Source: Lama glama (taxonomy: Eukaryota). Taken from it: DNA of 64,000 nucleotides. The notes under the pieces were generated by a model. That model was given only the letters and a program-made list of their open reading frames with translations, was not told the origin of the DNA and did no database searches. Location: assembly GCA_028534125.1 (NCBI GenBank), contig CM052816.1:41728001-41792000 (forward strand). The letters run 5' to 3'. Made by a program: the position numbers and the translations under genes. This document shows positions 52,004 to 57,459 of the stretch, piece after piece (the first letter of the stretch is position 1; each line of letters begins with the position of its first letter).

Positions 52004-53799
52004 ACTCATCTTACGCTAACATCTAATTGGAAACAAGCACGGAAATGTTCATGAAAAAAGCTTGTTTGGTTTATAAGTAAGGATGAGTAAGATTCTGACA
52101 GGAGGTTGTGGCAGGATAAAAGAAAGATGCGTTTTGAGCTAATGAAACAGCACTGGAAAATACAAGACAATGGGAAACTATGGAGCACATTCAGGAAACG
52201 TTGAAAAGTTTATCTAGACTTGTGTGTGTGTGTGTGTGTATGCATGACATGGGTTTTTTGGTTTTAACTGAGAGATAACATCAGATCTTAAGTGTATGAT
52301 CCTGTTCAAATTCTTGTGTTTGTAATCTTGCCCCCCCCCCAGCATTTGGTCTCTTGTTTATTGTTCTGACCAAACACTCTAAGCCCGCTGAAATACATTT
52401 TTCCTTCCAAGAGAGGATGCTTAAATGAGTAAGTCAGTGCCTTTCTCTACTCATACTAGCAGATGTTAGAAAGTAGCTCAAGCCTGGAGAAAGAACCCAT
52501 AACCAGCTATTTCATAGCTGTAATTACAACCATAATAATGAATCATTTCCTTTGGCTGGCACTTGTTGGGTTCTGAGCATAACATTCTGTGGGTTAGCCA
52601 TTCTGGAAGCATTTCTCTGTCTGCTGATGCATTTTAACAAGGAGGTTTGAGGAATCAGGCCTATAAGAAAAATGTTCCTGACTGTATATAAATGCAAGTT
52701 TAGTGATAGGTAGTGAGCTCATATGAGAAAGAAGTCATCAAGTCCTGGGTAATGGAATTGTCTTGACTTATTAGGTTGTAGCTTAGAATATAAAAATCAA
52801 ACTATAAAATATAATCTGCTGTACAGTGTGCTAATTAACTAGCTGGGCCAGCTTTTACAGACTTAATTTTACAGATTTCCCTGAGGACCTAATCTAGTTT
52901 GGTGACTCAGAGCTGTATCTCCCTCCTGCTTGGTCTTAATAGTCATGGCTCCTGGCTTTTTTTTTTTTTTTCTTCCTATGATGTCAAAGACCTTATCTTT
53001 GTCTCTTTTGTTAGATAATATCCTTTCTACGTAGAAATCCCCTTGAGATCATCAATATAAGACACTGCATTGTAAGTCCAGATTTTCCTACTTCTACCTG
53101 CATAGTTTTTTTCTTTGTTGTAAGTAATGCTCGTATTTCAGAATAATAAGTCATATTTCAGAACAACCACCACAAGGTGAAATAGAGGAGACAGACACAG
53201 GTAGCAACAAGGGCTGGATTGAAGATAAGAATGTCGATTTGGTAGAAAGGCGAAGATTAAGTGGGAAATCAATTACCTGTAAGCTTTTTCACAGTTATAG
53301 CAGCGGGAGATGTAGAAATGGGAAATGAACAACAAAAAATCAATTCTTTTACCAGCTTTAAGTTTACAAACCAATCCAGCTAGGGAGACAAGTAGAATAA
53401 TAGAAATAAAAGTCCTTAAAATAGCTTTTTTATTGATGATAAAGATAATATGTGCTTGATGTAGGGTATTTATAAGCTCAAAAGAAAATAAAAAAACCTA
53501 GAGATCACCATTGTGAATATTTCAATGTATTTCCTTATAACTTTTATCTACTCAGAAAATTTTCCCATTAACTTGCTGTCATTCTCTGTGTGTAACTTTT
53601 ATTCTTCTTTTTTAGCATTATACCATAAACAGTTTGTCAATATGAATCTTCTAAAACAACTAAAACATTTTTTCATGTTTTTCGATCAGCAGAATGTACA
53701 CTTATAGAAAAATTTAGAGAATAAAATCAATAAAAGCTATTAATGCTATTGGTAGTGTGTGTATATTATGAGTGTATATACATCTACAGTAGTTCTATA

Positions 53800-54430
53800 A
53801 TCTGTTTATGTATAGCAGGTATGTGATCACATTATGGTTATTTTGAAACATACTTTTTATTACTTAGCAATGTATTATGAATATCTTTCCATGCATATAT
53901 ATATATATATACACACACATACATCTATGTATATAGACATTATTTTAATAAATATATAATATTCCATTATGTGGGTATTCTATAATTGAATGAACCAATC
54001 CTCTAGAGTCAGACTTTCATATTGCTTCCAAATGTTTACCTTTACATATAATGCTATAATGAAAATACCTATGAATATTTTGTCATTCCTTATTTTTAAA
54101 AAATACATTTTAAGAATCCAGCAGTTCATACCAATTAACAGAATTCATGTCAATCTCATGTTGAGGTTGATAGTAATGGGATGACTTCTTAAATAATACC
54201 TAATTCAATAGGCAGAGCTCCGTTCAATAGCTCAGCTGGTAGAGCGGAGGACTGTAATTCAATAGGCAGATGTTATCTCCTTGTTTTAGTTTATACTCCT
54301 TTTATATTAATAAGAATTGATTTCTTTCATGTAGTTATTATGTATTTATATATTAGCATTTTTTGTAAATGATCTATTTTCATTTTTATTTTAGTGGATA
54401 TCACTTTTTAAATTAATTCTCATGAATTTT
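53800..54430 (-). mobile_element. Old L1 (L1ME-like) 3' region, host of the tRNA-derived insert
   Basis: ttacttagcaatgtattatgaatatctttccatg...tattccattatgtgg...aaccaatcc...ataatgctataatgaa. Confidence 0.7.
54217..54256 (+). pseudogene. Tailless retropseudogene: 5' half of tRNA-Tyr(GTA)
   Basis: ccgttcaatagctcagctggtagagcggaggactgta versus mammalian tRNA-Tyr CCTTCGATAGCTCAGCTGGTAGAGCGGAGGACTGTA. Box A at 54228-54239. Perfect TSD taattcaataggcaga at 54201-54216 and 54255-54270. No 3' half, B box or poly(A). Confidence 0.93.
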
Positions 54431-55019
54431 AAATTAAGTTAATTAAATTTAAAATTTAAAATTATTATTTTATTGGCTACATGATATAGACATATTTAGC
54501 ATAATGCAGAAGAGGACTTTTCTTGTTGCCTTCAAATTTCGATTATACCCTCAAAGCTGAGTATGATGGGGAAAGTACCACCAGGTTTTTAACAGAGAAA
54601 CTAGACACACCCTATACACCCTTCAGGGTCTGAGTTTTTTAGAGATTCATCACCACTAATAGTAGCCAGAGGTTAATTTTTGATTTATTAGGAGAGAATA
54701 TTTTGAAAGGGATTTGCAAGGAGTAGAGAGAACTATGTTGTTTCTCCTCCCTCTTCCAATCTTCAAGCTGAACGAACACCATACCAAGAGGGCTTGACTC
54801 ACCCTTGGAGTTTGTGGGGCAGATAATGGAAAAGGCTGGAGGCCAGAGGCTAGGTGGAGCAGACCACAAAGGCAGCGCCAGTAGAGAGGGCAGTGGGAGA
54901 GTATGGCTAGTAATCCTGAGTTTGGCAAGCTGATATGGGATGTTTCCCTAGAGCCAAATGGTAGCTGACTACAAATCATCTTGTGAGGATCTCCCCACGT
55001 CATCAATTCTGTTTTCCAG

Positions 55020-56576: not shown

Positions 56577-57459
56577 GAAGGAAAGAAAACACTTATCTTT
56601 CATGCTTGTCCCTGCTGACCTCTAAGACTAACGTCTTGTTTCTCTCCTTTCAAAACAACTTTCTTAAAAGTATGATCGCTATCTGTTCCTTCCACTTTTC
56701 ATTTTACCCCTACTCTTTGATCTCTTGTAATTAATATAAATTCAGATTCCACCAACATACTGAAAATGTTCTCTCCAAGCCCAACATGGACCACCTAATC
56801 ACCAAACTTGTTGATCTTTTTGCTTTGTGTGTCAGAATGTGCCTGAAAACCTAGTAGGAAGATACGTAGTTCCCACAACAATCAGGAAGGATAGAGGCAT
56901 ATGGCCTAAGTCAGAATATAGACCCCAGCTGCTACTCCTTGTCAGATATAATTTGCCTCCTGGCCTCATAATGACCTACTCTCCCTCTCATGTAAAATGT
57001 GGCTTACTTTCCTGTCATTCATTCACTCCTTTTCCCAGGATTTGGAATTCTCCAGCTTCACAATCTTCCTCCTGAAATTTGTCTTTTCTTGCACCACGTT
57101 TTCTCTGTTGACAGGCACCCATCTTTCTAACTGCTTTAATATAAAAACCTCAGCCCCCTGGTCTTCCTGTTTTAGGCTCCTAAACCAGGTGCCCTTTTTC
57201 TGTGGTGAATGATTCTGAGGACAACAGCTTTTCCTAAAGTTACTTAAATGCCCCCCTTGTTAGCTGATCACTCTCTTCATTCACTCTTACCATCGCTGAG
57301 TGCCTTGAACAAAACCATAGCTGTGAGGCACTGCTCTGAAGAGACTTGCTCCTACTGGACAGTTTTGGATGCTGGCCCAGCTCTGAGTAAGGGTGACCTC
57401 TGGTGGACGCGACTCATTCTTTTCTTTTGTAAACATTATTGTAGTTTTTGCTGTGTGTA

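Follow-up and report, generated by a model that had tools for sequence, protein, structure and literature searches.

Structure of the locus

The window (the whole stretch of DNA analysed, 64 kb, G000:C1:41728001-41792000) belongs to a 2.35-Gb Lama glama assembly and contains a 38-nt insert, at positions 54217-54254, that corresponds to the leader and 5' part of a tRNA-Tyr gene and is bracketed by two identical 16-nt repeats. The features at the locus, all on the forward strand, are as follows.

54201..54216 (+): left copy of the target site duplication (TSD), taattcaataggcaga, an exact repeat of 54255-54270
54217..54220 (+): pre-tRNA 5' leader gctc, identical to -4 to -1 of the tRNA-Tyr gene on C28
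54221..54254 (+): tRNA-Tyr(GUA) positions 1-34 (5' strand of the acceptor stem, D arm, 5' strand of the anticodon stem and loop to G34), matching exon 1 of this genome's tRNA-Tyr genes at 32/34 positions
54228..54239 (+): tRNA positions 8-19, the box A part of the internal Pol III promoter, as read from the sequence
54255..54270 (+): right copy of the TSD, an exact repeat of 54201-54216, whose first two bases, TA, equal U35-A36 of the anticodon (putative priming microhomology)

The two copies of taattcaataggcaga agree at 16/16 positions, and since the bases just outside the repeats are unlike (c/g before, g/t after), the TSD is exactly 16 nt long. Only two places in the 64 kb match the 16-mer with ≤2 mismatches, and these are the TSD pair itself (mean of 0.10 in shuffled sequence). 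There is no A-run ahead of the second repeat, which follows directly after G34. The locus is thus a TSD-flanked, tail-less retrocopy of the 5' part of tRNA-Tyr, as the original prediction had it, and the 2-nt microhomology that it described is likewise present: TA at 54255-54256 equals U35-A36, an overlap of 2 nt that becomes 3 nt when a G:T wobble is counted.

Aligned without gaps, the insert consists of the 4-nt leader gctc and tRNA-Tyr positions 1-34, with two substitutions in the tRNA part (C2>G at 54222 and G6>A at 54226). We rejected a gapped alignment with three extra 5' bases and a 1-nt insertion, because the ungapped one requires only the two substitutions and yields an exact match to the leader. 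The 3' exon is missing from the copy, which has no box B, body or tail. From general knowledge of tRNA genes we take 54228-54239 to be box A and place box B in the missing 3' exon, so the copy keeps box A only, as had been proposed. ARAGORN called no tRNA in the window, and an Rfam search of 53700-54800 returned no tRNA match at E≤10; both results are expected for half a molecule.

Source gene and retained leader

The best BLAST match of the insert in the 2.35-Gb genome is C28:14406251-14406290 (95% identity over 40 nt, E = 1.8e-7), in the intron-bearing tRNA-Tyr gene that served as source. The intact tRNA-Tyr genes of this genome all carry an intron of 16-21 nt behind G37, followed by a normal 3' exon. 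The bases gctc occur exactly at -4 to -1 of the C28 gene (the second gene of locus L007), while the next best gene matches at only 2 nt; the extra 5' bases of the insert are therefore leader. The original prediction had suggested searching the genome's tRNA-Tyr genes for one with such a leader, and the C28 gene provides it. Its reading of the extra bases as 5' leader holds, but its count of three (gct) does not, as there are four.

RNase P trims the 5' leader during tRNA processing. Because the leader is kept in the copy, the template was a 5'-unprocessed pre-tRNA-Tyr that RNase P had not trimmed. The start of the leader is probably the Pol III start site. The C2>G difference may have arisen by later mutation, by an error of reverse transcription or from a source allele since lost, and we count it against the explanation preferred below. 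A G at tRNA position 2 (window position 54222) is also found in two old intron-containing copies, L039 (C5:38975890) and L043 (C9:57243376), a hint that all three may go back to a source allele since lost and did not change independently.

tRNA-Tyr sequences across the genome

Two motifs from the 5' exon were searched genome-wide with ≤3 mismatches: positions 10-34 occur at 42 places and positions 1-22 at 63 places, 23 of them new, giving a union of 65 places. Of these, 14 are intact genes with an intron, 1 is a variant gene (L042), 4 are chance matches and 46 are retrocopy places. The chance matches (L074, L077, L078 and L080) are unrelated and were left out of the tally. Groups of five, four and two places were each treated as the same locus on redundant contigs, which reduces the 46 places to 38 independent loci; for the group of four (unplaced contigs that share the 22-mer variant of L081), assignment to one locus is an assumption for three of the contigs.

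A 33-mer search for the 3' exon with ≤3 mismatches found exactly 14 places, namely the intron-bearing genes, and a 27-mer across the spliced junction has 0 matches genome-wide. Both the 3' exon and the spliced junction are missing from all 38 retrocopy loci, and no copy in the genome comes from a spliced or 5'-processed tRNA-Tyr. Leaders can be matched to genes at several other loci: L046 agrees at 7/7 positions with the C3 gene, L048 at 6/6 with a C8 gene, and L056 and L070 each at 5/5 with the variant gene L042. For L040, L051 and L053 the match is 5 nt long, again to the C3 gene, and a further 1-4 leader bases are unmatched.

One tRNA-Tyr retrocopy locus recurs on five short unplaced contigs (C127153, C208707, C229194, C680179 and C1051257), where its flanks are identical, and another locus was found twice on one contig in inverted orientation (C84621:64081 and C84621:1249864). 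This repetition suggests assembly redundancy or segmental duplication.

Breakpoints and predicted precursor folding

The 38 loci were tabulated by the position of their 3' end, and the ends are not random across the genome, in agreement with what the original prediction expected of such a survey. The end lies at G34, with the TSD directly after it, in 8/38 loci (the window copy, L006, L002, L012, L046, L048, L053 and L059). Seven of these eight TSDs begin with TA, matching U35-A36, and the eighth begins with CAG, where wobble pairing is still possible. L040 (1/38) is ambiguous between a G34-type end and an end in the intron, so the anticodon-ending loci number eight, perhaps nine; L062 (1/38) ends in the D arm. 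A further 18/38 loci end 6-12 nt past G34 and 7/38 end 13-19 nt past it, so that 25/38 extend 6-19 nt beyond G34 into intron or intron-like sequence. The remaining three loci (L039, L013 and L073) have no convincing TSD, and the TSDs counted for L054 and L079 are only 8 nt long. In the 6-12-nt class the sources, L042 and its apparent forerunners, read (T/C)AGAGGT(A/G)AT after G34, and the copies end within the UAAU stretch.

The downstream junction of L040 (C5:54036383) looks like a mosaic of target and source-intron sequence over about 12 nt. Such a mosaic would be expected if a long imperfect duplex between primer and RNA had been resolved base by base.

Six precursors were folded, each beginning with its leader and ending at the first T4 run; the probabilities of being unpaired, P(unpaired), are predictions. 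For the source of the window copy, predicted P(unpaired) is 0.99 at A36, 0.73 at G37, about 0.74 at the first intron bases and 0.35 at U35. The window copy is truncated in an anticodon loop that is predicted to be partly unpaired in its source precursor; U35 is predicted to be mostly paired there, which we count against the preferred explanation. The UAA of L042 has a predicted P(unpaired) of 0.97-1.00, and the AUCAAA of the C3 gene, where L051 ends, has a value above 0.9. The ends of the copies therefore appear to coincide with A/U-rich loops that are single-stranded in these predicted folds.

A variant gene and its probable copies

L042 (C8:61302251) is a tRNA-Tyr-like gene that keeps box A and box B and lacks part of the anticodon arm. 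It reads CTGCAGAGGTAATTT where the anticodon loop, the intron and the 3' strand of the anticodon stem would be. Copies of the L042 type are L045, L052, L056, L058, L063-L066, L068-L070, L075, L076 and L081. At least a dozen tail-less copies seem to go back to L042 or its forerunners; nearly all of them end in UAAU, and they make up a small family with a common end that resembles the ‘tailless SINEs’ of Noll 2015 (PMC5322556), as characterised in the available text of that paper. The window copy differs from such SINEs in that it derives from an ordinary tRNA-Tyr gene and not from the prolific L042.

Age and genomic context

The window copy differs from its source at 2 of 38 nt, and the members of the TSD pair differ at 0 positions. 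The source has two CpGs in the copied part, of which C25G26 is kept and C5G6 has decayed to CA, while the CpG at 54221-54222 is new. The original prediction had read retained CpGs as a sign of recent insertion; this holds for one of the two inherited CpGs and not for the other. With two substitutions, one of them at a decayed CpG, the insertion is unlikely to be very recent. Exon differences from the best source are ≤2 in 8 of the first 23 loci, the window copy included, which places it among the younger copies, though it is not demonstrably recent. A genome-wide BLAST found no second contig matching the flanks, so the assembly contains no alternative, empty-site haplotype. The surrounding 2 kb is present in 19 public read runs of five organisms, a result that is uninformative on the insert.

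The insertion had been thought to lie inside a very old L1, and this found no support: a Pfam search of 28 ORF pieces (50.1-58.0 kb) gave no L1 domain and the flanks have no second copy in the genome, although a very old L1 would escape both searches. Nor did Pfam find an L1 domain in 10 long ORFs of the window. Within the flanks, only a (TA)n(CA)n microsatellite at 53868-53944 has matches elsewhere in the genome; it also gives weak, below-threshold Rfam matches to miRNA precursor families (mir-297, 30 bits, gathering score 90). At 57023-57259 on the reverse strand there is a weak Pfam match to Glyco_transf_49 (E = 0.0057, 16.5 bits, cut-off 27), which could be an exon remnant or a chance match.

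Nature of the template and route of insertion

The staggered TSD, the 5'-complete copy and the bases common to target and RNA make up the anatomy of target-primed reverse transcription by L1 in the absence of a poly(A) tail. Alongside the directly observed anatomy, source gene, retained leader and 38 like loci, we infer the involvement of L1 and the pairing step. L1 is plentiful in the genome: a search for the L1 ORF1 domain gave 11,355 first-look candidates, and 150/150 of those scored passed the cut-off, most of them without stops. This shows that L1 was available; its role in this particular insertion is presumed.

Our preferred explanation, with a probability of roughly 0.6, is that L1 copied an unspliced, leader-bearing pre-tRNA-Tyr from the C28 gene, with priming inside the RNA at the anticodon. 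The template would be the Pol III primary transcript of that gene with the 4-nt leader still on, and the L1 enzymes would copy it by target-primed reverse transcription. The endonuclease would nick the bottom strand where the 16-nt site begins (cc/TAATTC or cct/AATTC as read on the top strand), and the freed DNA end would pair with U35-A36 in the anticodon loop/5'-splice-site bulge, possibly also with G37 by G:T wobble, this pairing standing in for the usual annealing to a poly(A) tail. Reverse transcriptase would proceed to the 5' end of the RNA and a staggered second nick would give rise to the 16-nt duplication, the product being a dead 38-nt ‘tailless retropseudogene’ with box A only.

The main competing explanation has as its template a free leader-5'-exon fragment (LE-tRF, or 5' pre-tRF-Tyr), released by a splicing cut before removal of the leader and likewise mobilised by L1. 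RNAs of this kind that keep the leader exist, and in the available text of the reports (PMC8488643, PMC12239594) their 3' ends are -TGTA, -GTAG and -TAGA, which is the range hidden in the TA overlap. Eight, perhaps nine, of the 38 loci end exactly at the anticodon, and in 5/8 anticodon-ending loci the target complementarity extends no further than G37 when G:T wobble is allowed. The window copy has the leader and is compatible with an RNA 3' end at A36-A38; it fits an uncut precursor and a leader-5'-exon fragment alike, with no base that distinguishes the two. The other loci speak for the uncut precursor. With 25/38 containing sequence past the 5' splice site, unspliced precursors did serve as templates and cutting is unnecessary, and the copies of L042 cluster at its UAAU loop instead. 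At L048, target and source share 7 nt, 4 nt of which reach into the intron, a weak hint of an uncut template. Truncated-RNA intermediates of 5S and U2 were looked for and none was found, according to the available part of Noll 2015 (PMC5322556). Given unspliced templates, ends in unpaired A/U-rich loops and microhomology, internal priming explains the ends, which follow whichever A/U-rich loop each source offers and not the splice site. The free 5' exon that the original prediction envisaged as template is therefore not needed, and we regard it as a serious but clearly less probable source of the window copy; between an uncut, unspliced precursor and one on which the cut at the 5' splice site had already been made, we favour the former at about 60:40.

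Two further explanations are very improbable. If the template had been a stress-type 5' half of mature tRNA-Tyr, cut in the anticodon loop, the copy would end at the anticodon, as it does, but RNase P had not acted on the template, whose 4-nt leader equals the upstream bases of the gene, and the spliced junction occurs at 0 places genome-wide; the leader excludes the anticodon-cleaved mature half that had also been proposed. tRNA-like SINE heads are common in mammals and the insert does contain a box A, yet to read it as the head of a tRNA-derived SINE, or else as a decayed or partly deleted tRNA-Tyr gene, is hardly more credible. The motif is found at just 65 places in the genome, which rules out the SINE head that the original prediction had raised against itself; moreover, the 38-nt insert has no body or tail, its flanks are unique, and an exact 16-nt TSD brackets precisely the leader and the exon part.

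Relationship to known retrocopies and significance

Tailless retropseudogenes are a by-product class of L1 activity, and copies of exactly this kind are described in the available text of Noll 2015 (PMC5322556), which attributes the first description of the class to Schmitz et al. 2004. There, truncation falls in a loop or single-stranded region, the target shows complementarity to the RNA over its terminal 2-18 nt, and the target consensus is TT/WAAAAWW. The same text takes unprocessed tRNAs as templates to imply loading in the nucleus, and weighs ‘breakpoints or internal priming’, favouring internal priming.

The window copy shows the features of the class: it comes from a small RNA that is complete at the 5' end and truncated at the 3' end, has no oligo(A), is flanked by a TSD, ends in a predicted loop and shows target complementarity. 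With the tRNA cases in the available text of Noll 2015 (PMC5322556) it also shares an unprocessed precursor as template and last RNA bases in common with the target. Its microhomology of 2 nt equals the published minimum. It departs from these published cases in no essential respect: its target, cc/TAATTCAA, fits the consensus weakly (4/9 positions), and its source bears an intron, so that the end of the copy coincides with the 5' splice site. The minimal microhomology and the weak fit of the target both weigh against the preferred explanation. As far as the available text of the LE-tRF reports goes (PMC8488643, PMC12239594), the window copy resembles those fragments in comprising leader and 5' exon, with 3' ends around A36-A38; but LE-tRFs are cellular RNAs whereas the window copy is DNA, and its sibling loci are evidence that uncut precursors served as templates as well. 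A narrow literature search found no paper linking tail-less copies to the tRNA-Tyr leader-exon fragment. The window copy is a real, well-formed, ordinary and inert member of a class described since 2004.

Because the intron lies right after the anticodon, tail-less copies of tRNA-Tyr are a natural test of cut RNAs against internal priming. In this genome there are no spliced or 5'-processed copies, most copies contain intron sequence, and the ends lie at A/U-rich loops predicted to be unpaired, which favours internal priming on nuclear precursors. A defined subset, the loci that end at the anticodon, could nevertheless stem from the known leader-exon fragment. That the window copy and the 7-8 others are retrocopies of free leader-5'-exon fragments is a tentative proposal, which we think rather unlikely. 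If it were true, the germline genome would keep a fossil record of a tRNA splicing intermediate, one that accumulates in CLP1/TSEN defects, and counts of such fossils across mammals would report the abundance of that fragment in germ cells over evolutionary time.
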